Of a DNA stretch of 61,712 nt, positions 24,201 through 61,712 are shown piece after piece. Every line of letters begins with the position of its first letter. Positions within the stretch are counted from its first letter, which is position 1. Source of the DNA: Candidatus Melainabacteria bacterium (GTDB lineage Bacteria > Vulcanimicrobiota > JABDET01); assembly GCA_013286945.1 (NCBI GenBank), contig JABDET010000002.1, positions 1 to 61,712 on the forward strand, read 5' to 3'. The notes under the pieces were generated by a model. The model was given only the letters and a program-made list of their open reading frames with translations. It searched no databases and was not told where the DNA came from. Made by a program: the position numbers and the translations under genes.

Positions 24201-24352
24201 TGCCGCAGACCGTGGGCCCAATGCTGATGAAGCATGGATAATGGAACTCTGGTTCCACCTACCGAGGCACACTCAGTGAAAAACCAAAACTGATTGTTGA
24301 AGCGCTTGCCTATTTTCAGCCTTCGCTTTTGTCTGCGGAGGCTTTATTATTT
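24201..24352 (+). promoter_or_regulatory. putative rplJ (L10) leader with terminal attenuator hairpin
   Basis: Nested helices TGCC(24201)/GGCA(24266), CCAATGC/GCATGG and GGAAC/GTTCC. Then AGCCTTCGC-N8-GCGGAGGCT (24318-24343), followed by TTATTATTT just 5' of the rplJ SD. Confidence 0.4.
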
Positions 24353-25158: not shown

Positions 25159-25554
25159 ATGGCAACAAAGACATTAAGCAAAGAAGAAATCTTGGATGCA
25201 ATCGCTTCTCTCAGTGTGCTGGAACTTGCAGAATTGGTGAAGGCGCTTGAAGAGAAATTTGGCGTGAGCGCGGCTGCGCCAGTAGCCGTTGCTGCGGCCG
25301 CCGCACCCGCGGCTGGCGGAGGTCATCCCGCAGCCGAGGAAGCCGCCACGGTTTCCGTGATCTTGAAAGAGGCCGGACCGAACAAGATCAATGTCATCAA
25401 AGTCGTTCGCGAAGTCACCCCGTTGGGGTTAAAGGAAGCCAAAGACTTGGTGGATGGTGCTCCAAAAGCGGTTAAGGAAGGGATTGCTAAGGAAGAAGCC
25501 GCGACCATTAAGAAGAAGTTTGAAGACGCCGGCGCCAAAGTCGAAATCAAATAA
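25159..25554 (+). CDS. rplL: 50S ribosomal protein L7/L12
   Basis: [31 protein letters not shown]...[40 protein letters not shown] before ATG 25159. Confidence 0.95.
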
Positions 25555-34044: not shown

Positions 34045-34545
34045 TTAGTCCTTATCTTTTCCTTCCTCGCGTCCTTTAAGGAAATCGCTTGGTTTCAAGT
34101 TTTCGATAAATCTTTTAAATTTCTTTTGTTCTTCATCCCCGGCTTGCTTGTCCGCCACGGTTTCCTCGAGCACAATCCGCTCGGAGACAAAAATGGGCGC
34201 ATTGGTTCGAAGGGCTAAAGCAATCGAATCTGAAGGTCTTGCATCGATTTCAAGGGTGCCTCCGTTTGACTCAAGCACCACTTTAGCGTAAAACGTGTTT
34301 TCTTGGATATCATGGATGATAATCCGAGCTACTTTTGCTTTGAGCGAGTGAATAATCGAACGCATTAAGTCGTGCGAAAGAGGGCGTGGAACCGGTGTCC
34401 CTTCCAAGGCCAAGGCAATGGCTGTGGCTTCAAAAGGGCCAATGAGGATAGGAAGGTATCGCTTCCCCTCAAGATCCTTCAAGATAACAACCGGATCGTG
34501 GGTCAAGAGATCAATCCCGAGTTTGTCGACCTTCATCCTTCGCAT
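34045..34545 (-). CDS. bifunctional nuclease family protein (BFN/DUF151)
   Basis: LPILIGPFEATAIALALEG...RPLSHDLM...IDARPSDSIALALR. Confidence 0.8.
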   Translation of the reverse strand: MRRMKVDKLGIDLLTHDPVVILKDLEGKRYLPILIGPFEATAIALALEGTPVPRPLSHDLMRSIIHSLKAKVARIIIHDIQENTFYAKVVLESNGGTLEIDARPSDSIALALRTNAPIFVSERIVLEETVADKQAGDEEQKKFKRFIENLKPSDFLKGREEGKDKD

Positions 34546-46976: not shown

Positions 46977-46994
46977 GGCTCACCCTTTCCGCAC

Positions 46995-47027
46995 AAAAAA
47001 TGGAAAACCCTCCCGTTAGGGAGAGTT
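46995..47027 (-). terminator. terminator/attenuator-like hairpin abutting the pheS SD
   Basis: Minus-strand RNA AACUCUCCC-UAAC-GGGAGGGUU (9 bp, one G-U), then UUCCAUUUUUUG. The U-run ends 4 nt before the SD GGAAAGGGUGAG. Confidence 0.55.
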
Positions 47028-47062
47028 CTCACATCAAGATTAAATTTAGTTAATGAGTGCGA

Positions 47063-47152
47063 TTAGTTTTCTGTGAGGATCACCTTGTAGAGTAGGTAAG
47101 CAGTAACGGAGCCTGTGGTTTGGAATATGCGCCAATAGAAATTGGTGTCCAT
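47063..47152 (-). CDS. mini-ORF B, 29 aa, YqzL-like
   Basis: My translation is MDTNFYWRIFQTTGSVTAYLLYKVILTEN. TAGGAGGTGA SD lies 11 nt upstream. Paralogous to mini-ORF A. Below the ORF-track length cutoff. Confidence 0.6.
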   Translation of the reverse strand: MDTNFYWRIFQTTGSVTAYLLYKVILTEN

Positions 47153-47170
47153 TTAACCGTTCTTCACCTC

Positions 47171-47278
47171 CTAGGATTTAAGCTTGCAATACATGATATA
47201 AGCGACGAGCGAACCTGTGTTTTGGAAGAGTTGCCAGAACAGCTCGGGCGTTTCTTGTGCGGAAGTTATAACGCTCAT
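47171..47278 (-). CDS. mini-ORF A, 35 aa, YqzL-like
   Basis: My translation is MSVITSAQETPELFWQLFQNTGSLVAYIMYCKLKS. GGAAGGAG SD lies upstream. It is the C-terminal part of track ORF 47171..47380. Confidence 0.6.
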   Translation of the reverse strand: MSVITSAQETPELFWQLFQNTGSLVAYIMYCKLKS

Positions 47279-47336
47279 CTTCGCTCCTTCCAGGACCTTG
47301 CACGGAGTGCTTAATCTTCCGTGTGCCTTCAAGTTG

Positions 47337-47366
47337 AGTATAACATACCTGTCAAGACTAAGGCAA
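47337..47366 (-). promoter_or_regulatory. sigma70 promoter with extended -10 for the mini-ORF/pheST transcript
   Basis: On the minus strand: TTGCCT (47366-47361), 18-nt spacer ending in TGt, TATACT (47342-47337). A CACGGA/TCCGTG hairpin lies in the predicted 5' UTR (47300-47327). Confidence 0.45.
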
Positions 47367-47379
47367 GCATTCAGATACA

Positions 47380-47403
47380 AGCATTAGAGTTAACTCTAAT
47401 GCT
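47380..47403. promoter_or_regulatory. perfect 24-bp palindrome (candidate operator) in divergent promoter region
   Basis: AGCATTAGAGTT|AACTCTAATGCT. Confidence 0.5.
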
Positions 47404-47505
47404 TCTTGAAAACATTGAGTTTTCGATGTTTGTCACTCTTTTGACAACCTTGGGTTATGATGTCGCATAAGCAAGATTTTTCGAGCTTGGAAGGAGGTGA
47501 ATTTC

Positions 47506-47745
47506 ATGAAGAAGATGTTCATACCGTTGATGCTGTGTAGCCTTCTCTTGACATCGGCGGGGTCTGGTGCTTGGAGCCACACCAATTCGACTTCCCCTCG
47601 AATTCAGGTTTCCTCCCAGGATCAAACACCAAAGCCCCATCGCAAGAAGGGAAGGCATTCGCACAAAAAACATAAGGGGAATACGGATCAGAATGCCGGG
47701 ACCGATAAGCCGACCAACTCAACTCCCGACGACTCAAAGAAGTAA
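47506..47745 (+). CDS. small secreted His/Lys-rich protein
   Basis: GGAAGGAGG SD. Signal peptide MKKMFIPLMLCSLLLTSAGSGA, then PKPHRKKGRHSHKKHKGN. A strong terminator follows. Confidence 0.6.
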   Translation: MKKMFIPLMLCSLLLTSAGSGAWSHTNSTSPRIQVSSQDQTPKPHRKKGRHSHKKHKGNTDQNAGTDKPTNSTPDDSKK

Positions 47746-47763
47746 ACGAGGAAGACATGTGAA

Positions 47764-47791
47764 GGAGAGCCCGCGGGCTCTCCTCTTTTTT
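47764..47791 (+). terminator. rho-independent terminator
   Basis: GGAGAGCC-CGCG-GGCTCTCC followed by TCTTTTTT. Confidence 0.8.
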
Positions 47792-47823
47792 ATAACCGTA
47801 AATCGTCAATCGAAAATCAACGT

Positions 47824-48057
47824 CTAGGGGTTTGTTAATAGATGGTAGGCTTCATCCAATCCCTGCTTCCATTCCCCGGCATGATCCGGGAATACGAGGA
47901 CTCGATTGCTTTTCCAGCTACCGTCGATGTTACGGGATTCGCTTACCACCAAATATCGGCTCCCATTCTTTTCCGATTGTTTGACATCAATGAAATAGCT
48001 TCTTCCTACACCACCAGGGACCCGTTTACTGAAAAGTGTCTTACCGTGTTCTGCCAT
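47824..48057 (-). CDS. bacterial PUR-alpha-like nucleic-acid-binding protein (DUF3276-like)
   Basis: LFSKRVPGGVGRSYFIDVKQSEKNGSRYLVVSESRNIDG...NRVLVFPDHAGEWKQGLDEA matches the PUR-repeat pattern as I recall it. AAGGAG SD lies before ATG 48057. Confidence 0.55.
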   Translation of the reverse strand: MAEHGKTLFSKRVPGGVGRSYFIDVKQSEKNGSRYLVVSESRNIDGSWKSNRVLVFPDHAGEWKQGLDEAYHLLTNP

Positions 48058-51521: not shown

Positions 51522-52043
51522 CTAATACTCTTTGCCCCGGAATGCTCGGTCCACTTCACGCTGTGCTTCTTTTTCGCGGATGGATTGCCTCTTGTCAAAG
51601 AGCTTTTTCCCTTTAGCTAAGGCAATTTCTACTTTAGCCCAACGGCCTTTGAAGTAAACGCGCGTGGGAATGAGCGAATAACCGCGTTCGTTCACCTTTC
51701 CAATGAGGCGGCGTATTTCGGCGACGTGAAGCAGCAGTCGGCGTTTTCTTTTTGCCTCAGGCTGAAAATGTGAACCGGTGTCCCAAGGATTGATGTGCAT
51801 TCCATGTAGCCAAAGTTCATCCCCTTCAGGTCTTGCAAAAGCATCTTGGATGGAGGCGTTCCCGGCACGAAGGCTTTTGACTTCTGAACCAACCAAGGAT
51901 AAACCCGCTTCAAAAAATTCTTCAAGGAAATACTCAAACTTGGCCTTTCGATTGAGAGCAACAGTCTTGTATTCCTTTTTCTTCTTTGACTCTTGATCGC
52001 TCGGAGGGGCTGCGCTCTCCAAGCGTATCGGCTTCTTTGCCAC
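51522..52043 (-). CDS. smpB: SsrA-binding protein SmpB
   Basis: NRKAKFEYFLEEFFEAGLSLVGSEVKSLR...LHGMHINPW...RKRRLLLH. About 20-aa N-terminal extension. Confidence 0.93.
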   Translation of the reverse strand: MAKKPIRLESAAPPSDQESKKKKEYKTVALNRKAKFEYFLEEFFEAGLSLVGSEVKSLRAGNASIQDAFARPEGDELWLHGMHINPWDTGSHFQPEAKRKRRLLLHVAEIRRLIGKVNERGYSLIPTRVYFKGRWAKVEIALAKGKKLFDKRQSIREKEAQREVDRAFRGKEY

Positions 52044-53125: not shown

Positions 53126-55761
53126 GTTGAGGTTCCGCCGATTCGCTGTGGGAGCAAGAGGGGTGCCCCATCGGCCCAATCTTCTCCCATGGCCAAATCA
53201 ACAACCAAGGGAATGTCGAGCGGATGGACATTCTCCATTTCTTCTTTAACCATTGATGCCAGTTGTTTCGCATCCGATTCTAAGACCTCGAACACGAGTT
53301 CATCATGGACCTGAAGGACCATGGTGGCAGCCAATTTTTGCTGCTCGATCTTTTCTTGGATGCGAGTCATGGCAATTTTGATCAAATCTGCGGCAGTTCC
53401 CTGAAGAGGCGCGTTCACCGCAATGCGTTCAGCTTGTTGGCGCATGAAGCTGTTTCCACTTTGCAACTCCGGCATTAACCGAATTCGCCCAAACAAGGTT
53501 CGCGTGGTCCCGCTGTTTCGAGCTTCGAGAACGGATTGTTGAAGATAAACCTCCACCTGAGGAAAACGTTCGAAGTATTTTCTTATGTACTCCCGTGCTT
53601 CTTCCCTCTTCATTTTCAGGCTTTGTGCCAACCCATGTTCGGTCATCCCATAAATAATTCCGAAATTGACCACCTTGGCCATTCGCCTCATTTCGGAAGT
53701 GATGTTTTCTTTGGAAACTCCAAAGACTTCTCCAGCGGTTCTGGCGTGGATGTCTTCCTGATTGAGAAAGGCTTCGCAAAGAACGGGATCCTTTGAAACA
53801 TGAGCAAGCAGGCGAAGTTCGATCTGAGAGTAATCCGCACTTAAGATTTTCCAATCAGATTTTTCGGCACGGAAAGCTTTTCGAATTTTCTTTCCATAAG
53901 ACGTACGGATCGGAATGTTTTGAAGGTTTGGATCTTTGGAAGAAAGCCTTCCGGTGGCTGTTCCCGTTTGGATATAGGTGGTGTGTAGTCTCTTGGTCTG
54001 TGCACTTACCATCTTAGGGAAAGTATCCAGATACGTGTTTTGAAGTTTAGAGAGTTCTCGGTATTGAAGTAGCGCCAAAGCAACAGGCGAATGCTCAGCC
54101 AAGCGTTCGAGTTCTTCCACATCGGTGGAATAGCCAGTCTTCCCTTTTCTCCCCTTAGGAAGGAGCAGTTTTTGATACAAGATTTCGGCAAGCTGTTTTG
54201 AAGAATTGATGTTAAAAACCGTTCCAGCTTGTTCATAAATTTGTTGTTCAAGCTTTGCCAAATCGGTTTTTAGCTCTTCGGACAGTTGTTTTAAGTACAC
54301 CAAATCGATGGCAATTCCGCTCCATTCCATTTGCGCCAGAACAGAGATCAGTGGCAGTTCAATCTTTTCGTAAACACTTTCAAGCTGCAGAGCTTGAAGC
54401 TTAACCTTAAGCGTGGTTCCAAGCTTAAGAAGCACAGAAGTCCAGCTTGCAAGAACCGCAGGTGATGGTGAACCTTTCGGTTGATCCGGGAGCGGAATCG
54501 CTAGATTTTCTCTTGCCAAATCCACGAGGGATGGGCTTGTTCGCAGGCTGTTGCAAAGCCAACCCGTGATCAGAACATCGTGAACAAGCCATTTCGGGGT
54601 TGGGAGTTTTTCAGCGCGAAATGCCAGTAAAAATGATTTCCAATCATAGACCATGGCTTCTTTCAACGAATCATGGGATACAAGTTGGTGAAGCGCTTTC
54701 TTGAAATGAGATGGGGGAATGATGAACCTTCTCTCATCAGGCAATTCGATACCGAGAAAGTGTTCATTCAGGAAAGGAGAAGGGGCTGGCCAAAGGAGCA
54801 AACCTGCTTGACTTGATTGCTTCAATTGTCCATTCATTTCATCGAGTAGATTTTCCGAGTCAACAAGCGTAAACTCAGGGGTTGTGAGGGTAACCGATTC
54901 TGAGAGACCAAGGCGTTCAATAAGGCCACTGAACTCCATCTCTTCAAGAAAGTGACGAAGTTTTTCCCGATTGAAGGGATTGAGTTGAGCGGTTTCAGGG
55001 TTAAACCCCAAGGGGGCGTCTTGCCTTAAGGTGACCAGATTTCGGTTAAGAGCGATCTTCTCGGCAGAAGTGCCGAGTGTCTCGCGGATCTTCGGCGGGA
55101 GTTCAGAAAGATGGTTGACAGCGTTTTCGAGGCTTCCCCATTCTTGAAGGAGCTTCGTAGCGCTTTTTTCTCCAAGGCCCGTAACTCCTACGATGTTATC
55201 GCTTGGATCGCCAACCAAGGCTTTTAAGTCAACAAGCTGTGAAGGATGAAGCGAAAAGCGTTTCTTGATTTCATCCAACGTGTACCGGGTTAATTGGCTG
55301 ATTCCCCGTCTGCTGGCCAACACCACCGTTTTTTCGTTAACAAGCTGGAGCAAATCGAGATCGCCAGAAAGAATGGCAATTTCTCCAGCTGTTTCTTGTG
55401 CTTGTTTCGTCACGGTGGCAATCCAGTCATCCGCTTCGTATCCGGGCTCTTCAATCACTGGGACATCCATGGCGCTGAAAAGTTCTTTCATGAGAGGGAG
55501 TTGGCTCAGAAAATCATCAGGGGGCTTTTGGCGATTCGCTTTGTACTCCGGATAGGCTTCGAGCCTGAATTTCGGGGTTTCTCGGTCAAAAAAGACCATC
55601 AGGTGCGTTGGCTTTTCTTCTTTTAAGATCTTAAAGATCATGTTTGCCATGGCAAGAACTGCCTGGGTGGATTGACCCTTGGAGTTGGAAAGAGAAGGCA
55701 TGGCATAGAAAGCCCGATACGCTAATGAATGCCCATCAACCAGAAGGAGTTTCATGGCCAT
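53122..55761 (-). CDS. polA: DNA polymerase I
   Basis: 5' nuclease N-terminus LLLVDGHSLAYRAFYA. Pol motifs DYSQIELR, RRMAKVVNFGIIYG, QVHDELVFE. Confidence 0.97.
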   Translation of the reverse strand: MAMKLLLVDGHSLAYRAFYAMPSLSNSKGQSTQAVLAMANMIFKILKEEKPTHLMVFFDRETPKFRLEAYPEYKANRQKPPDDFLSQLPLMKELFSAMDVPVIEEPGYEADDWIATVTKQAQETAGEIAILSGDLDLLQLVNEKTVVLASRRGISQLTRYTLDEIKKRFSLHPSQLVDLKALVGDPSDNIVGVTGLGEKSATKLLQEWGSLENAVNHLSELPPKIRETLGTSAEKIALNRNLVTLRQDAPLGFNPETAQLNPFNREKLRHFLEEMEFSGLIERLGLSESVTLTTPEFTLVDSENLLDEMNGQLKQSSQAGLLLWPAPSPFLNEHFLGIELPDERRFIIPPSHFKKALHQLVSHDSLKEAMVYDWKSFLLAFRAEKLPTPKWLVHDVLITGWLCNSLRTSPSLVDLARENLAIPLPDQPKGSPSPAVLASWTSVLLKLGTTLKVKLQALQLESVYEKIELPLISVLAQMEWSGIAIDLVYLKQLSEELKTDLAKLEQQIYEQAGTVFNINSSKQLAEILYQKLLLPKGRKGKTGYSTDVEELERLAEHSPVALALLQYRELSKLQNTYLDTFPKMVSAQTKRLHTTYIQTGTATGRLSSKDPNLQNIPIRTSYGKKIRKAFRAEKSDWKILSADYSQIELRLLAHVSKDPVLCEAFLNQEDIHARTAGEVFGVSKENITSEMRRMAKVVNFGIIYGMTEHGLAQSLKMKREEAREYIRKYFERFPQVEVYLQQSVLEARNSGTTRTLFGRIRLMPELQSGNSFMRQQAERIAVNAPLQGTAADLIKIAMTRIQEKIEQQKLAATMVLQVHDELVFEVLESDAKQLASMVKEEMENVHPLDIPLVVDLAMGEDWADGAPLLLPQRIGGTST

Positions 55762-55770
55762 CGATTCCTT

Positions 55771-56055
55771 CTAATGAATTTCAACATCACATTGAATCAC
55801 TTCGAGATCGGGTGCCCTTTCAATGAAGTGAATGATTTTTTGAATCACTGATTCTGCTTCGCGTGTAGCGGCACTGACACAAGCAACCCCTAAAGTGCAC
55901 CGCTGCCAGACGTCCTGATTTCCTACCTCCGCAATCGAAACTGGAAAGCGATGGAGAATTCGATCTTTCAACGATCGAATGACCATCCGCTTCTCCTTGA
56001 GGGATTGCGGTTGACTCGTCAGCCTTAGGTCAATTTCGCAAGCAACCACAATCAT
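55771..56055 (-). CDS. DUF503 protein (YlxP-like)
   Basis: MIVVACEIDLRLTSQPQSLKEKRMVIRSLKDRI...SIAEVGNQDVWQR. Confidence 0.8.
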   Translation of the reverse strand: MIVVACEIDLRLTSQPQSLKEKRMVIRSLKDRILHRFPVSIAEVGNQDVWQRCTLGVACVSAATREAESVIQKIIHFIERAPDLEVIQCDVEIH

Positions 56056-56987
56056 AAGGGGCCGGAAGTTTTTTCATTTCCGCGAAGGAGAGCTTCTGCA
56101 AACGCAGGAGGGTCAAAGGGCTGGAGATCGTTCATCGACTCCCCAACCCCAATAAACTTGATGGGAACTTGGAGTTCCTGACAGATGGCCAAGACAGCCC
56201 CCCCTCGAGCTGAACCATCCAACTTCGTGAGGATGATTCCAGAGATGGCCACTGCTTCTTTGAAGATCTTGGCTTGACTTAACGCATTTTGTCCAGTAGT
56301 GGCATCTAAGACCAATAGGGTTTCATGTGGAGCTTCCACGATTTCTTTTTGAATGACCCGTCGCATTTTTTTTAGCTCTTCCATCAAGTTGGTTTTGGTC
56401 TGAAGTCTTCCCGCCGTATCGATGAGAATCACATCGGCATGGCGGGCGTTTCCGGCTTTCACCGTGTCATAGGCTACGGCTGAGGGATCCGCTCCTTCTT
56501 TGTGACTGATAATCTCAACTCCCGCTCGTTCTGCCCAAACTTGCAGCTGATCGATGGCTGCAGCTCGGAAGGTATCAGCAGCCCCAAGAAAGACTTTTTT
56601 CCCTTGGCTTTTGAAATAAGCTGACAGTTTTCCAAGGCTCGTGGTCTTACCACTTCCGTTGACACCCACGATGAGAATCACGGTTGGCCCCGCAGAGGCA
56701 AAGCGGATTGGACTTAACTCTTTTCCAAGCAACGTAATGATTTCGGCCTTAAACAAATCAAAGAGCTTCCACGAGTCTTTGAGGTGATTCGCTTCTACGG
56801 CTTGGCGAAGTTTTGAAAGGAGTTGGGTGGTTGCGGGAACCCCGACATCGGCTTCAATCAAAAGCTCTTCAAGCTCTTCCCAAAGTTCTTCGGTAATGTC
56901 ACCTCGTCGGAAAAGATCGGTGACCTTTCCAAAAAAAGTGTCCCGAGTTTTGGTGAGCTTGTCGGTAAGTTCTGAAAGCCATTTCAT
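56052..56987 (-). CDS. ftsY: signal recognition particle receptor FtsY
   Basis: LIVGVNGSGKTTSLGKL, DTAGRL, TKLDGSARGG. Confidence 0.95.
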   Translation of the reverse strand: MKWLSELTDKLTKTRDTFFGKVTDLFRRGDITEELWEELEELLIEADVGVPATTQLLSKLRQAVEANHLKDSWKLFDLFKAEIITLLGKELSPIRFASAGPTVILIVGVNGSGKTTSLGKLSAYFKSQGKKVFLGAADTFRAAAIDQLQVWAERAGVEIISHKEGADPSAVAYDTVKAGNARHADVILIDTAGRLQTKTNLMEELKKMRRVIQKEIVEAPHETLLVLDATTGQNALSQAKIFKEAVAISGIILTKLDGSARGGAVLAICQELQVPIKFIGVGESMNDLQPFDPPAFAEALLRGNEKTSGPL

Positions 56988-57141
56988 CGGTCTTCTCCTC
57001 TATTCGATTCCCACTCTTGACAAATGGATCCTTCAGGGTTTAATGAAGCCCTATCGCTTGGCAGGTTTCACTTGCAAACCCACGAAGTTTTAACCCGTTT
57101 AGAAACATCAAAGATCATTCGAGGGAAAGGAGCAGTGCATC

Positions 57142-57534
57142 ATGCCAATAAGTCCCACGACCGCCCCCACGCAGCTTCCCCTACTCGGCTTTTTTGAAGG
57201 ACTTCAGAAGAACAGAGGCATATCGATGACGAGATTCCTTGTTGATATGGTGGATCAATGCATTAAATCCCCACCCGATGCGGAGGAGCGAAGATTGGAT
57301 GCCCTCAACCGCATGGCTTCATTCTTTAGCATAGGCGATGATGATCGAAGGGGAATTCAGGATCGCCTGGAAACTGCGGGAATTCACGATCAAGAGATCA
57401 TTTCACGTGTTGTTTCGACCGTTACCCTTTCTGCCTTTGCTGCCATGCTCGGACCGGAGAACCTTGAGAAAATGCTCCTTATAAGCAAGGGTTTCCATAA
57501 TCAAAATGCCGGGGTTCCGGCATCTGGCAAATGA
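57142..57534 (+). CDS. hypothetical protein
   Basis: 130-aa ORF with GGGAAAGGAG SD. No recognised motif. Confidence 0.5.
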   Translation: MPISPTTAPTQLPLLGFFEGLQKNRGISMTRFLVDMVDQCIKSPPDAEERRLDALNRMASFFSIGDDDRRGIQDRLETAGIHDQEIISRVVSTVTLSAFAAMLGPENLEKMLLISKGFHNQNAGVPASGK

Positions 57535-57573
57535 GAAATAGGATTGATTTTTGCCTGCAGGCGATGAGTAGCT

Positions 57574-58983
57574 ATGCCTGAACTTCAATTCTTAGGTGCC
57601 ACCGGAACGGTGACCGGATCGAAGTATCTCTTAACCACAGGGAATCAAAAAGTCTTAATTGATTGTGGTTTGTACCAAGGCCTTCCAGCGCTTAAAGATA
57701 AGAACTGGAAGCCGTTCCCGATTCAACCCAATGAAATTGATGCGATCTTTATTACCCACGCCCATCTTGATCACACCGGTTATCTTCCCAAGCTTGTTCA
57801 GCTCGGCTATCGCGGACCGATTTATGCCACTTCTTCCACCGCCGAATTGATGAACATTGTTCTCCTTGACTCAGCACATCTTCAAGAAGAGGAAGCTTCT
57901 TTTCACAAACAAGGGAATGGGTGTTGCCCAGATGCCGAGCCCCTTTATACGGTGCAGGATGCTTCTGAAGCGCTTCATTTGATTAAGCAAATTCGTTTTG
58001 GCGAAAAGTTCGAGCGAGGAAACCTTACGGTAGAATTTCTTCAAGCAGGACACATTTTGGGATCGGCCTTTATTCGAATAACGGTTAAAGAAAATGGAAC
58101 CGAGGAGACCATTTTATTCACGGGAGACATGGGACGGTATGGTTCTCCGATATTAAATGATCCGACACCCGTCACGGAGTCTGATTATCTTTTGCTTGAA
58201 TCAACGTATGGGGATCGAAGCCATTCGACGATCTCGCGAGAAGATGCTTTGCTCCCACCAATCCAAGAATGTCTAAAGCGGAAAGGGTGCCTTCTAATGC
58301 CTGCATTCACCATTGGAAGAACTCAAGAAATTCTTTACACGATCCGTGTGCTGCTTCAACAAAACAAAATTCCGCCGATTCCTGTGTACATTGATAGCCC
58401 AATGGCCATTGACGTAACGCACATCTATGCGACCCATCATGACGAACACGATCTCGATTTGGAAAAAATGGAAAAAGAAGGGAATTCCCCATTTCAATTC
58501 CCATCCTTGAACTACGTGAGAACGGTGGAGGCTTCAAAGGCATTGAATGAAGCAAAAGGCCCAATCATTATTATCTCGGCCAATGGAATGGCCACAGGTG
58601 GAAGAATCATGCACCACCTGGTTCACCGTTTACCCGACCCAAACACCATCTTGCTCTTTGTTGGTTATCAAGCAGAAGGGACTCGCGGAAGACAGCTCCT
58701 CGAAGGGGCAAAATCAGTGAAGATTTTTCATCAAGACATTCCAGTGAAAGCCACCATCATGCAGTCGGATACATTTTCCGCTCATGGAGATTTCACCGAA
58801 ATTCTCCGCTGGCTGGCTGGGTTCACCAAGCCTCCTGGGAAAGTTTTTCTGGTGCACGGAGAACCTGACGGGCGAGAAGGGCTGAAAAGACATATTCTCG
58901 AGAAATTCCCTTCGTGGAACATTGAGCTTCCCGCGGAAGCCGCGACCGAAGACTTAACCCTCACGCTGCGGCGTTCTTCCTAG
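57574..58983 (+). CDS. MBL-fold beta-CASP RNA-metabolising hydrolase (CPSF/RNase J-related)
   Basis: IDCGLYQG, ITHAHLDHTGYLP, beta-CASP ESTYGD. C-terminal FSAHGD...LVHGE. Confidence 0.85.
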   Translation: MPELQFLGATGTVTGSKYLLTTGNQKVLIDCGLYQGLPALKDKNWKPFPIQPNEIDAIFITHAHLDHTGYLPKLVQLGYRGPIYATSSTAELMNIVLLDSAHLQEEEASFHKQGNGCCPDAEPLYTVQDASEALHLIKQIRFGEKFERGNLTVEFLQAGHILGSAFIRITVKENGTEETILFTGDMGRYGSPILNDPTPVTESDYLLLESTYGDRSHSTISREDALLPPIQECLKRKGCLLMPAFTIGRTQEILYTIRVLLQQNKIPPIPVYIDSPMAIDVTHIYATHHDEHDLDLEKMEKEGNSPFQFPSLNYVRTVEASKALNEAKGPIIIISANGMATGGRIMHHLVHRLPDPNTILLFVGYQAEGTRGRQLLEGAKSVKIFHQDIPVKATIMQSDTFSAHGDFTEILRWLAGFTKPPGKVFLVHGEPDGREGLKRHILEKFPSWNIELPAEAATEDLTLTLRRSS

Positions 58984-59192
58984 CGTCCTGTCCCGCGAGG
59001 TTTCCATACAATCGTTCATACCTTTCGCTCATGGTACCCTTCCGACCGCGGTACTCCCACTTCTAACGTCGACCAGCGCATACGCGATATATTCCGGTTC
59101 CCGACGTTAGAAATGGGTCCTCCACGGTCGGAAATCCATTCGCGAAAGGTCAGAACAGATGTCTGGAGCAGTTGGCACAGGACGCTAGGAAG
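58976..59192. repeat. 217-nt imperfect long inverted repeat / rod-like structured element bridging two convergent stop codons
   Basis: Perfect 16-bp termini CTTCCTAGCGTCCTGT (58976-58991) / ACAGGACGCTAGGAAG (59177-59192), plus nested helices at 59021-28/59142-49, 59031-34/59136-39, 59040-51/59122-33, 59056-59/59114-17 and 59061-71/59102-12. Confidence 0.7.
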
Positions 59193-59913
59193 GGGGGATC
59201 TGCAATACCCCATTCTCGTCCACCCAAGGTTGGCGTAGAATCTTTTGCCGCTTATCTCCCCATTGAATGGCCTTCTTTACTGAATCAAAATGCGACAGTT
59301 CGGCAAGGGTGATCACGGTGGGGGGCATTAGGGGAAGAGCCCCTTCTTCATTTTTCTTGAGAGCAATTTGTGGACTCATCCATAGACCTTCCGAAGTTTC
59401 GTGCAGGTCGGGTGTGAGGTTGAACCCTTCCGGAAGCTCACTCATAAAAAAACAAGTGTTGTATCGAACGGGAAAAAGTGTTGGAGTAAGCCAATGGGCG
59501 TAATAGGTCAGTTTTTCGGGAGAGAGCTTCAATTGAAACGATTCGATCAAGGGAAGAAAACATTTACCTTCATGCAATTGGGTTCGAATCTCTTGGATCA
59601 CGTCAGGAGGGCAAGGCCTCTCCGAGAGAAGGAGCCCTGATTCTTCGAGCAATTCTCGGAGTGCTGCCACATGGAAACCAAGGGGTGATTTCGGAAGAAT
59701 ATCGGTCATTCTCTCTTCCATGGCTTCACGCGTGAGGTGTGAGAATAAGGAAAACCATCGCGGATTTTGATCTTCCTCGTCAACTTTTCCTCCAGGGAAT
59801 ACATAGGCCCCAGCAGCGAATTCAAGACTCCGCGATTTTCGAAGAAGGAAGACTTCGAGCAATTCCTTTCCTTGCCGAAGGAGAATCACCGTTGAAGCGT
59901 CTTGGGGTTCCAT
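59185..59913 (-). CDS. NUDIX-family hydrolase
   Basis: VFPGGKVDEED ... AALRELLEESGLLL (Nudix box with a long insert). Confidence 0.6.
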   Translation of the reverse strand: MEPQDASTVILLRQGKELLEVFLLRKSRSLEFAAGAYVFPGGKVDEEDQNPRWFSLFSHLTREAMEERMTDILPKSPLGFHVAALRELLEESGLLLSERPCPPDVIQEIRTQLHEGKCFLPLIESFQLKLSPEKLTYYAHWLTPTLFPVRYNTCFFMSELPEGFNLTPDLHETSEGLWMSPQIALKKNEEGALPLMPPTVITLAELSHFDSVKKAIQWGDKRQKILRQPWVDENGVLQIPPS

Positions 59914-60011
59914 AGGCTTTGGGATCCATTTTTGGCTTCTTGAAAGAAGTCCCCTCTTAAAAGAACAAATTGACGAAAGAGAAGGGGGGAAAGCGTCGAA
60001 TAGCCTAAGCT

Positions 60012-60203
60012 ATGGACGAAAAGCACGAGATTCCCGCAAGTCAGTTCCTGGTTCAGAAACATGCTGAAATTGAGGCTGGAGGTGGGGCCTGGCTCTCCTT
60101 GAAGATGTTTAAGAATCGTCAAGAAGCGGAGAAATATTTAAGCGATCTTCATCTTGGAGACCAGGGGCGTATCATCGAAGCTGTGTTTGAATCAGCTAAG
60201 TGA
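60012..60203 (+). CDS. possible small hypothetical protein
   Basis: 63-aa ORF between divergent genes. No convincing SD. Confidence 0.25.
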   Translation: MDEKHEIPASQFLVQKHAEIEAGGGAWLSLKMFKNRQEAEKYLSDLHLGDQGRIIEAVFESAK

Positions 60204-60213
60204 ACCGGTTTAA

Positions 60214-61712
60214 ATGTTAAGCTCCATTAATCCCAGAAACGGAACAGAAATTGGAAAAACTCAAATTGTTTCTCGAGAAGAGGTTTACAAAAAGGTAGCT
60301 CTTGCTCGGGAAGCACAAAAAGAATGGGGAAATAAACCCATTCGGGAACGACTTCACCATTTAAGAAATCTATGTCACCTCTTGTCTGAAAAAGCCGAAT
60401 CCTTTTCTGAACTCATCATGCAAGAAACCGGGAAATCGCTTGTGGATGCTTTAACCGGAGAGATTCTCCCCTCGCTCTTTTGGATTGATTATGTTTGTCG
60501 AAACAGCGAAAGGCTGTTGGCTCCTCGGAAGATTTCATCTGGTTTTCTCTTCAGCCATGAAAATGTGGTGACCTTCGATCCCCTTGGAGTGGTTGGGATC
60601 ATCACCCCTTGGAATTTCCCGGTGTACATTACACTCACGTCAGCCGCTGCCGCCCTTGCTGCTGGGAATACCGTGGTTACAAAGCCTTCACACCTCACTC
60701 CCCTGTGCATCTTGAAGCTAGAGGAAATCATAGAGGAAGCGGAATTTCCACCCGGTGTTTTCCAAGTCATTCCGGGTGATTCGACCACAGGAAGCGCCTT
60801 GGTTGAAGCGGGCATCGACAAAATCGTATTTACAGGGAGCGTAGAAGTAGGGCGAAAAATTGCCATGGAATGTGCCGAAAGATTTATCCCGTTCAGTTTG
60901 GAGCTTGGTGGCAAAGATCCGATGATTGTTCTTGAAGATGCTCCGATGCCACGAACGGTTCATGGAGCTTTGTATGGCGGGTTTTGTCATGCGGGACAAA
61001 TTTGCATGAGTGTGGAGCGAATTTATGTGGCTGAACCGATCGCGGAGAAATTTGTTCAAGGTGTTGTAGAGGAAACAGCCAAGCTTCAGTTGGGAAAAGA
61101 GATTAGTCCCATTCAAAGCCAGGAGCAATTGCTTAAAATACAAACCCAAGTCCAAGAAGCGATTGAACGGGGTGCCATTCTCCTCGTGGGAGGGAAACGG
61201 GTTGATTCTCCCGGCAATTTCTACCCACCCACAATTCTTTTTGATGTTCCGGAGAATGTCGCTCTTCTGAAAGAAGAGACCTTTGGACCGGTGATTCCAA
61301 TCCAGATTGTGAAAGATGAAGAAGAGGCGATTCGCCTAGCCAACGCAAGTTCTTATGGCCTGACCGCAAGCGTTTGGTCAAGGAATCTGGAAAGAGCCAA
61401 AAAAGTGGCAGAACAGTTGCATGCCGGGAGCGTTTACATCAATGACAACTTGACCCCTGCCGCCAATCCTCATGCTCCATGGGGAGGGGTTAAGGAAAGC
61501 GGAACGGGAAAGCAGCGGGGTGAATGGGGGTTGTACTCGATGGTTTCCGTGCGTCATTTTGGGTGGAACCGTTTTCTTTTCGCGAAAGATCCATTCTGGT
61601 TTCCCCGAACCAAGAAGCAAGAGAAACTTGCACTCAGTTTGATTCGCGGATTGTTCTCGAGGAAATTTCAAGACAAGCTGGCGGGCTTGTGGGATGCACT
61701 TAAGGCTTTTCT
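60214..61712 (+). CDS. aldehyde dehydrogenase family protein, C-terminus cut by window edge
   Basis: Absent from the ORF track because no stop lies in the window. My translation from ATG 60214 is MLSSINPRNGTEIGKTQ...GIITPWNFP...ELGGKDP...CHAGQICMSVERIYV...EETFGPV...GLTASVWS. Confidence 0.85.
   Translation, partial: MLSSINPRNGTEIGKTQIVSREEVYKKVALAREAQKEWGNKPIRERLHHLRNLCHLLSEKAESFSELIMQETGKSLVDALTGEILPSLFWIDYVCRNSERLLAPRKISSGFLFSHENVVTFDPLGVVGIITPWNFPVYITLTSAAAALAAGNTVVTKPSHLTPLCILKLEEIIEEAEFPPGVFQVIPGDSTTGSALVEAGIDKIVFTGSVEVGRKIAMECAERFIPFSLELGGKDPMIVLEDAPMPRTVHGALYGGFCHAGQICMSVERIYVAEPIAEKFVQGVVEETAKLQLGKEISPIQSQEQLLKIQTQVQEAIERGAILLVGGKRVDSPGNFYPPTILFDVPENVALLKEETFGPVIPIQIVKDEEEAIRLANASSYGLTASVWSRNLERAKKVAEQLHAGSVYINDNLTPAANPHAPWGGVKESGTGKQRGEWGLYSMVSVRHFGWNRFLFAKDPFWFPRTKKQEKLALSLIRGLFSRKFQDKLAGLWDALKAF

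Follow-up and report, generated by a model that had tools for sequence, protein, structure and literature searches.

The window analysed here is the whole 61.7-kb contig JABDET010000002.1 of Candidatus Melainabacteria bacterium (61,712 nucleotides), a region of core chromosome that encodes PheST, PolA, CoaE, SmpB, FtsY, flagellar export proteins, L10/L12, Tmk, HolB and fumarase. Within it, a plus-strand gene of the beta-CASP RNase family and a minus-strand Nudix hydrolase gene converge on a 217-bp imperfect palindrome (58976-59192), which can be folded into a rod-like hairpin from either strand and whose ends contain the stop codons of both genes. The features of this junction are as follows.

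57574-58983, plus strand: beta-CASP / metallo-beta-lactamase RNase-family gene, 469 amino acids (aa)
58976-59192, strand-neutral: whole element, a 217-bp imperfect palindrome, identified by direct reading, folding and a repeat finder
58976-58991, strand-neutral: left terminal inverted repeat, CTTCCTAGCGTCCTGT, 16/16 positions matched
58981-58983, plus strand: TAG stop codon of the beta-CASP gene, positions 6-8 of the left repeat
58992-59020: left-arm zone just inside the terminal repeat, weakly paired with 59150-59176 in the folds
59021-59071: well-paired inner left arm, partner 59102-59149, with helices of 8, 4, 12, 4 and 11 bp
59072-59101: ~30-nt apex, containing an AT-rich stretch as well as a GCG/CGC mini-hairpin
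59177-59192, strand-neutral: right terminal inverted repeat, ACAGGACGCTAGGAAG, 16/16 positions matched
59185-59187, minus strand: TAG stop codon of the Nudix gene, positions 6-8 of the right repeat
59185-59913, minus strand: Nudix hydrolase gene, 242 aa, a lone minus-strand gene

Architecture of the palindrome

Direct reading and the repeat finder agree that CTTCCTAGCGTCCTGT (58976-58991) is the exact reverse complement of 59177-59192, and these terminal arms can be extended to 19 nt with one mismatch (18/19; the left arm then reaches 58994). Further inward, CCTTTCGC (59021-28) pairs with GCGAAAGG (59142-49) over 8 bp, ATGG (59031-34) with CCAT (59136-39), 59040-51 with 59122-33 in a 12-bp helix containing a single C/T mismatch, CCCA (59056-59) with TGGG (59114-17), and TTCTAACGTCG (59061-71) with CGACGTTAGAA (59102-12) at 11 of 11 positions. 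The inner helices were read directly and then recovered by folding and by the repeat finder, and the helix list and perfect 16-bp ends given in an earlier note, which had been made from the sequence alone, were all reproduced by these three approaches.

Identity between the two arms is patchy, with perfect 16-bp ends that break off sharply at both flanks, then ~25 nt that pair weakly, and then the well-paired core; overall, the arms are ~69-80% complementary. This combination of sharp, perfect ends with a weak sub-terminal zone and a paired core resembles terminal inverted repeats (TIRs) and not a hairpin that decays outward from its apex. Alignment of the arms contains 77 matches, 12 transversion-type mismatches and 12 gap columns. 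Four of the arm mismatches would become G.U pairs if the plus strand were folded and six if the minus strand were, while the minimum free energy structures contain two G.U pairs on the plus strand versus seven on the minus strand. We considered this strand asymmetry as a possible mark of selection at the RNA level and rejected it, as neither difference (4 vs 6, 2 vs 7) is significant. Since the arms show neither a strand bias nor any sign of structure-preserving substitution, they argue mildly that the element originated at the DNA level, as TIRs around a core that has diverged, and less for an RNA shaped by selection acting on a single strand. It is in addition a local GC peak, at ~55% GC against a background of 47-48%.

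Stability of the fold relative to chance

The predicted structure is a rod of 80-84 base pairs in which the 5' and 3' ends pair with each other. Folded as RNA, the plus strand reaches -111.7 kcal/mol (z = -11.25) and the minus strand -126.8 kcal/mol (z = -13.28), with 0/200 shuffled sequences as good in either case, and the plus strand folded as DNA reaches -63.1 kcal/mol (z = -11.1), again with no shuffle as good. The minus-strand RNA, which corresponds to the Nudix 3' untranslated region (UTR), is 15 kcal/mol more stable than the plus-strand RNA. A genomic background was also drawn from 1,538 real 217-nt windows of the contig. Their folds average -57.9 kcal/mol on the plus strand and -55.2 kcal/mol on the minus strand, with a standard deviation of ~8.5 and minima of -89.1 (plus) and -79.9 (minus), and the element is the top outlier among all 217-nt folds of the contig. 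The comparison with shuffled sequence proposed in the earlier note thus placed the stability of the element far past the controls on both strands, and a chance palindrome is ruled out by the shuffles of RNA and DNA as well as by the contig's own windows.

Stop codons of the two convergent genes

The beta-CASP open reading frame (ORF) terminates in TCC-TAG at 58978-58983, within the left terminal repeat, and the Nudix ORF terminates in TCC-TAG at 59190-59185 on the minus strand, within the right terminal repeat, so that the shared Ser-stop ending noticed previously is present in both ORFs. Both genes enter the element in the same phase, with one flank base plus CT, then TCC, and then TAG. Of three possible entry frames, one meets a stop immediately and the other two would append 29 or 44 residues; the frame with the immediate stop is the one used by both genes.

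The conserved C-terminus of the beta-CASP protein ends in ...EDL (~58956), and both DNA and protein homology stop at this point. What follows is a lineage-specific 8-aa tail, TLTLRRSS, whose final codons derive from the element, and the beta-CASP proteins of the relatives each carry a tail of their own, of 5-16 aa, after the conserved end. The beta-CASP protein is therefore not truncated. The Nudix protein has a best homologue of only 39% identity among 5.8 billion proteins, a collection that includes the relatives' own samples, and this homologue (P0002) sits in an unrelated actinobacterial-type neighbourhood. The Nudix protein ends ~40 aa short of most homologues, the missing C-terminal tail being YPGDP...PGPTRL...RFEP, and no remnant of this tail was found in the element or in the rest of the window. 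Since some Nudix homologues are equally short and no remnant is present, truncation by the element is unproven.

Comparison of the locus with its relatives

The closest relatives of the locus belong to a small clade of beta-CASP genes at 63-72% identity, and eight related loci were compared with the window. They are listed here with the identity of the beta-CASP protein and the genes found on its 3' side.

L009/L010, 69%: a 65-aa ORF (4 nt away), aldehyde dehydrogenase, then GlyS (minus strand)
L080, 63%: a 62-aa ORF (106 nt away), then the contig end
L016, 67%: GlyS (minus strand)
L015, 71%: NDH-2 (plus strand)
L079, 72%: an unrelated 213-aa gene (minus strand), overlapping by 4 nt
L011-L014, 65%: glutamate dehydrogenase (minus strand)
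L081, 66%: Nramp (minus strand)

Upstream synteny, from FtsY to beta-CASP, is retained in L009/L010, L015, L080 and the window. Downstream, the beta-CASP gene borders a hot spot of rearrangement, with six neighbour arrangements in the eight related loci. In the window, the beta-CASP gene is followed by these features.

58957-60011: extra segment, lineage-specific, consisting of the variable tail, the hairpin, the reversed Nudix gene and a 98-nt spacer
60012-60203, plus strand: conserved ORF of 63 aa, with homologues of 65 aa in L009 and 62 aa in L080
60214-61712, plus strand: aldehyde dehydrogenase gene, running off the contig end

The 63-aa ORF of the window matches the 65-aa ORF of L009 at 46% identity (E = 6e-14), and the aldehyde dehydrogenase is 63% identical over 463 aa to its counterpart after the small ORF in L009. 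Compared with L009 and L080, the window carries ~1.03 kb of additional DNA, comprising the hairpin, the reversed Nudix gene and the 98-nt spacer, between the beta-CASP gene and the small ORF. The left border of this extra segment, placed by the end of the ...EDL homology, lies no more than 20 nt from the outer end of the element. Neither the hairpin, nor any comparable long inverted repeat, nor a Nudix gene is present in any of the eight related beta-CASP loci. Conservation of the hairpin at the orthologous locus, one of the points by which the earlier note would have judged it, was accordingly found in none of the eight, which leaves no hairpin at these loci in which to look for covariation. 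This comparative result, in which the hairpin and the Nudix gene interrupt a row running from beta-CASP through the small ORF to aldehyde dehydrogenase, is the most solid new information from this analysis. The lack of any Nudix orthologue above 39% identity in the collection of 5.8 billion proteins favours acquisition in the window's lineage. No meaningful repeats bounding the 1-kb extra segment were returned by the repeat finder.

The L079 locus was considered as an "empty site" and rejected, as its convergent gene, which overlaps the beta-CASP gene by 4 nt, is unrelated to the Nudix gene. In this closest relative (72%), the convergent stops overlap by 4 nt (1711-1714), indicating that convergent junctions without a spacer do occur in the clade.

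The small ORF (60012-60203 in the window, 7418-7615 in L009 and 3839-4027 in L080) encodes 62-65 aa, belongs to no Pfam family and carries the motif ...GAW(L/I)SLK(M/I)F...G(R)(I/V)(I/F)EAV... In L009, it overlaps the aldehyde dehydrogenase gene by 1 nt and is translationally coupled to it.

A possible MITE-like origin of the element

[quoted passage not shown] Their hairpins affect the fate of messenger RNA (mRNA), either by stabilising the upstream mRNA or by being cut by RNase III, for which Correia hairpins are substrates (PMC2229807). The element resembles these in size and in being non-coding (217 bp, where ~100-300 bp is expected of a bacterial MITE, stops in every frame and no protein resemblance among the 5.8 billion), in its terminal inverted repeats (16/16, or 18/19 when extended) and in its end-to-end stem-loop of 80-84 bp. 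A MITE-like, foldback-type, non-autonomous element or relic of one, which landed at the new convergent junction or arrived together with it, is the reading that we tentatively favour, although we rate its chance as somewhat short of even. The TIR-like ends, the size, non-coding nature and stem-loop, the stop phase shared by both genes, the lineage-specific junction, the local GC peak and the lack of strand bias among the mismatches all fit this reading.

The element sits at the outer border of the ~1-kb segment that interrupts the row of beta-CASP, small ORF and aldehyde dehydrogenase. The CTAG palindrome in each terminal repeat hands a TAG to a frame entering from either side, and on this reading the element would have replaced the last codons of both convergent genes, each of which now ends in ...Ser-TAG. 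As CTAG gives an immediate TAG in one of three phases, insertions in that phase would be the least damaging, which would explain the phase found in both genes. Transcription from either gene would yield a rod of ~80 bp. This rod could act as a two-way barrier and as a 3'-end structure, either blocking 3' exonucleases or offering a site to RNase III, and it could curb antisense read-through between the two head-on genes. Both the past mobility of the element and its role at the RNA level are what we infer from its structure and location.

Palindromic repeats of the REP/BIME and SPRITE types provide a second point of comparison, as they are enriched where genes converge and have been proposed to act in mRNA stability or termination (PMC3184786). 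The element is likewise a GC-rich palindrome between convergent genes, but REPs measure 20-40 nt and occur in tens to hundreds of copies, whereas the element is one unrepeated unit of 217 nt. REP/REPIN palindromes are associated with the RAYT transposase, and no transposase-like gene was found in the 42 kb scanned by Pfam.

Searches for further copies, a cognate transposase and a target site

A number of observations weigh against past mobility. No second copy of the element was found in the 61.7-kb contig, either with the 16-mer end at up to 5 mismatches or by BLAST. A match to the terminal repeat at 34062 with 2 mismatches was rejected as chance, since it lies inside a BFN-domain gene and has no further similarity around it. 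The 19-mer end consensus gave six unpaired matches in 596 Gb of species-representative genomes, which fall in unrelated phyla and amount to about the chance level, and no match in metagenome contigs of the Joint Genome Institute (JGI), where the 16-mer gave 55 unpaired singletons, none extending; in viral contigs, the 16-mer gave seven singletons only. These genome and metagenome scans returned no self-match, which places the source genome outside those collections, and of that genome the copy searches covered <5%; beyond this contig, the organism is seen only as short Logan contigs of one run, SRR8433451. In 78 retrieved loci, nothing extended in a BLAST search with the element, and degenerate inverted partners formed five pairs versus ~8 expected by chance. 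The full 217 nt searched in distant mode had no match in plasmids and phages, and a pseudo-protein of the element's long stop-free frames (six-frame) retrieved nothing at E <= 10 from the 5.8 billion proteins. No cognate insertion sequence with matching ends was found with the 16- and 19-mers in genomes, metagenomes, viral contigs, plasmids and phages, and a Pfam scan that covered 42 kb turned up neither a transposase nor an integrase. Within the data searched, the element has no sequence relative.

Several features of MITEs are also missing from the element itself. MITE families are multi-copy, usually A+T-rich and often end in TA, and they make target-site duplications (PMC2229807). By comparison, the element is a singleton in all searchable data, ends in CT...AG without a terminal TA, which sets it apart from most MITEs, and is ~55% GC instead of A+T-rich. 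Its flanks, ...GGCGTT on the left and GGGGGAT... on the right, share no direct repeat, and a target-site duplication is therefore absent. Alternatively, a palindromic CTAG could be a duplication around an 8-bp repeat, which would make the match of the outer CTTC/GAAG a coincidence. Nor does the tree settle polarity. L009 and L080 are sisters (100% bootstrap), and by the tree alone an insertion in the window's lineage and a deletion in the common ancestor of L009 and L080 are equally parsimonious, a tie that is broken by the search for Nudix orthologues described above.

An independent assembly offers a further view of the locus. Logan contigs of SRR8433451 are 100% identical to the window over 55320-58991 and 59163-60476, with the left contig (L001) ending at the inner edge of the left repeat, 16 nt inside the element, and the right contig (L002) ending exactly 30 nt inside the right end (k-1 for k = 31). 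Both breaks inside the element match what a repeat or a polymorphism gives in a de Bruijn graph, and the contig ends are weakly suggestive of one or the other. The same assembly also breaks in single-copy genes (PolA at 55320 and aldehyde dehydrogenase at 60476), so low coverage would suffice to explain the breaks in the element, which constitute weak evidence. Two explanations for them were rejected, as a simple deletion allele (loss of 58992-59162) through TGTC micro-homology predicts ends at 58992/59160, where 58991/59163 are observed, and a simple inversion allele does not reproduce both end positions.

Of the earlier note's proposal of a MITE/REP-type mobile repeat, the architecture and the lineage-specific junction stand, while neither a second copy nor a cognate insertion sequence turned up in the data searched, and a target-site duplication is absent.

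Alternative explanations

The main rival to a MITE-like origin is a bidirectional 3'-end hairpin that was never transposable, having either formed at this locus, perhaps when a 3' flank was duplicated in inverted orientation, or been imported as the 3' structure of the Nudix gene, and that has since been kept as an insulator or 3'-end stabiliser because the Nudix gene lies head-on within a formerly co-directional row. We consider this possible, at something under one chance in three. It would account for the element being single-copy in everything searchable, for the lack of a target-site duplication and of a transposase nearby, for complementarity that runs the full length instead of being confined to the ends, and for the exact position of the hairpin at a newly made convergent junction, where read-through is antisense to both genes. 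The greater stability of the minus-strand RNA, that of the Nudix 3' UTR (by 15 kcal/mol, with seven versus two G.U pairs), points the same way, but the G.U difference is not significant. Counting against it, the most perfect helix sits at the extreme base and ends sharply, which is unusual for a structure grown from its apex, and the 12 transversion-type mismatches and 12 gap columns give no sign of structure-preserving evolution. There is also no orthologous copy in which covariation could be read, and the hairpin has no U-tract although this genome uses canonical terminators.

The last point bears on termination more generally. In canonical bidirectional terminators, a short stem rich in GC has an A-tract on one side and a T-tract on the other. 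The element is like them in being one hairpin common to two convergent units, and differs in its length of ~80 bp, in having no U-tract on either strand and in overlapping both stop codons. No T/U-run follows the element on either strand and the terminator scan calls nothing there, whereas canonical hairpins with T-runs exist elsewhere in the contig, for example at 47763-47784 (plus), 47030-47003 (minus), 9077-9047 (minus) and 24318-24343 (plus). The previous judgement that this is not a normal bidirectional terminator is upheld by these results. A related suggestion, that of a dedicated structure for 3'-end processing or insulation connected with the adjacent beta-CASP RNase, survives in part. 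Such a role is plausible at a head-on junction, but the link to the RNase is not borne out, as the hairpin is absent at the eight related beta-CASP loci.

We give a slim chance to the possibility that the hairpin served to insert a single-gene mobile unit of an undescribed kind, consisting of a gene plus a ~200-nt 3' palindrome, by which the Nudix gene would have been brought, in reverse orientation and outside any integron, into a row of housekeeping genes; the same slim chance covers the unit together with the further proposal that its CTAG ends would be built to give facing genes an immediate stop. This explanation is compatible with the exact coincidence of the hairpin with the extra segment's border and with its strong single-stranded DNA fold, but position is the one thing that speaks for it positively.

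An assembly artefact, whether a chimera produced by foldback or two contigs falsely joined at a repeat, is very unlikely. The Logan flanks do lie on separate contigs that end in the element, and the 171-nt interior (58992-59162) is seen in one assembly only. However, the independent Logan assembly matches the window at every base of the two junctions between flank and repeat, and the arms are ~69-80% complementary, in comparison to the near-perfect arms of foldback artefacts. In addition, the beta-CASP gene and the small ORF with aldehyde dehydrogenase are neighbours in relatives too, which indicates that the contig is not chimeric across the element.

An independently transcribed gene for a rod-shaped small RNA between the two genes, 6S-like or other, is highly improbable. 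6S RNA is a discrete, abundant transcript of ~180-200 nt with a large central bubble that mimics an open promoter. The likeness lies in the rod that the element would form as RNA, roughly 200 nt long and interrupted by small internal loops, but it has no covariance-model match, no large central bubble and no promoter of its own, and it overlaps coding sequence. At E <= 10 on both strands of the element, Rfam returned only a plant microRNA precursor, whose 35 bits fall short of its gathering score of 105 and simply reflect the long hairpin; 6S was not detected there, and no family reached its gathering score over the whole 61.7-kb window. As both ends run into coding sequence with its stop codons, as the scan called neither a promoter-like site within or next to the element nor a terminator, and as none of the eight related loci has a counterpart, the earlier candidate of a 6S-like or other rod-shaped small RNA finds no support.

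Similarly far-fetched is an attC-like folded recombination site belonging to a single-gene cassette that delivered the Nudix gene. Sites of the attC type are 57-141 nt long, and their core sites R'' (RYYYAAC) and R' (GTTRRRY) pair at the base. Like them, the element is an imperfect palindrome at a gene's 3' end, which it overlaps, and it folds strongly as single-stranded DNA; the gene is extra in comparison to the relatives and was apparently acquired. At 217 nt, however, it is too long for the attC range and has no pair of consensus cores at its ends, the nearest candidate being GTTGGCA (59170-76), which is off consensus and whose partner region is unpaired. The Pfam scan, covering the 42 kb beyond the first 19 kb of the window, gave no sign of an integron platform, an integron integrase or an array of attC sites, the window holds no other long palindrome, and no meaningful repeats bound the 1-kb segment.

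Least probable of all is an inverton, in which the perfect 16-bp inverted repeats would flank a flip-able 185-bp core and the left Logan contig would end exactly at the inner edge of the left repeat because both orientations coexisted, since the right contig ends at 59163, 14 nt inside the core and not at the repeat edge (59177), there is no internal promoter-like site and no recombinase gene nearby, and the core is itself palindromic, so that flipping would change little. The remaining probability is kept for explanations outside those named here.

Wider context of the contig

No tRNA or tmRNA gene was found in the 61.7-kb contig, although smpB is present (51522-52043). The genes for L10 and L7/L12 (24379-25554) are followed by pdxS and not by rpoB/rpoC; ahead of them lie genes for flagellar export and a hypothetical gene on the minus strand. 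With 244 aa, the L10 ORF is long, and Rfam found no L10 leader. The strongest plus-strand fold of the genomic background (-89 kcal/mol, windows starting 25161-25281) lies within the L7/L12 gene.

A gene-poor stretch of ~860 nt (46977-47841) separates pheS from a gene for a hydrolase of the HAD family. It is flanked by two of the contig's best canonical terminators, 47030-47003 (minus) and 47763-47784 (plus), holds only a possible 82-aa ORF for a secreted protein (47497-47745), and has no Rfam match at E <= 0.1.

Significance

Comparison with the uninterrupted row in relatives makes the junction more than an isolated oddity, as it marks an event that is dated and tied to one locus. Should the MITE-like reading be true, the junction would add a case, from a lineage with very little sampling, in which gene ends have been reshaped by a small palindromic element. 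It would have provided stop codons for two genes at once, along with a shared 3' structure for a new head-on pair, and would illustrate how a genome patches a disruptive gene insertion, with no new principle or mechanism required.

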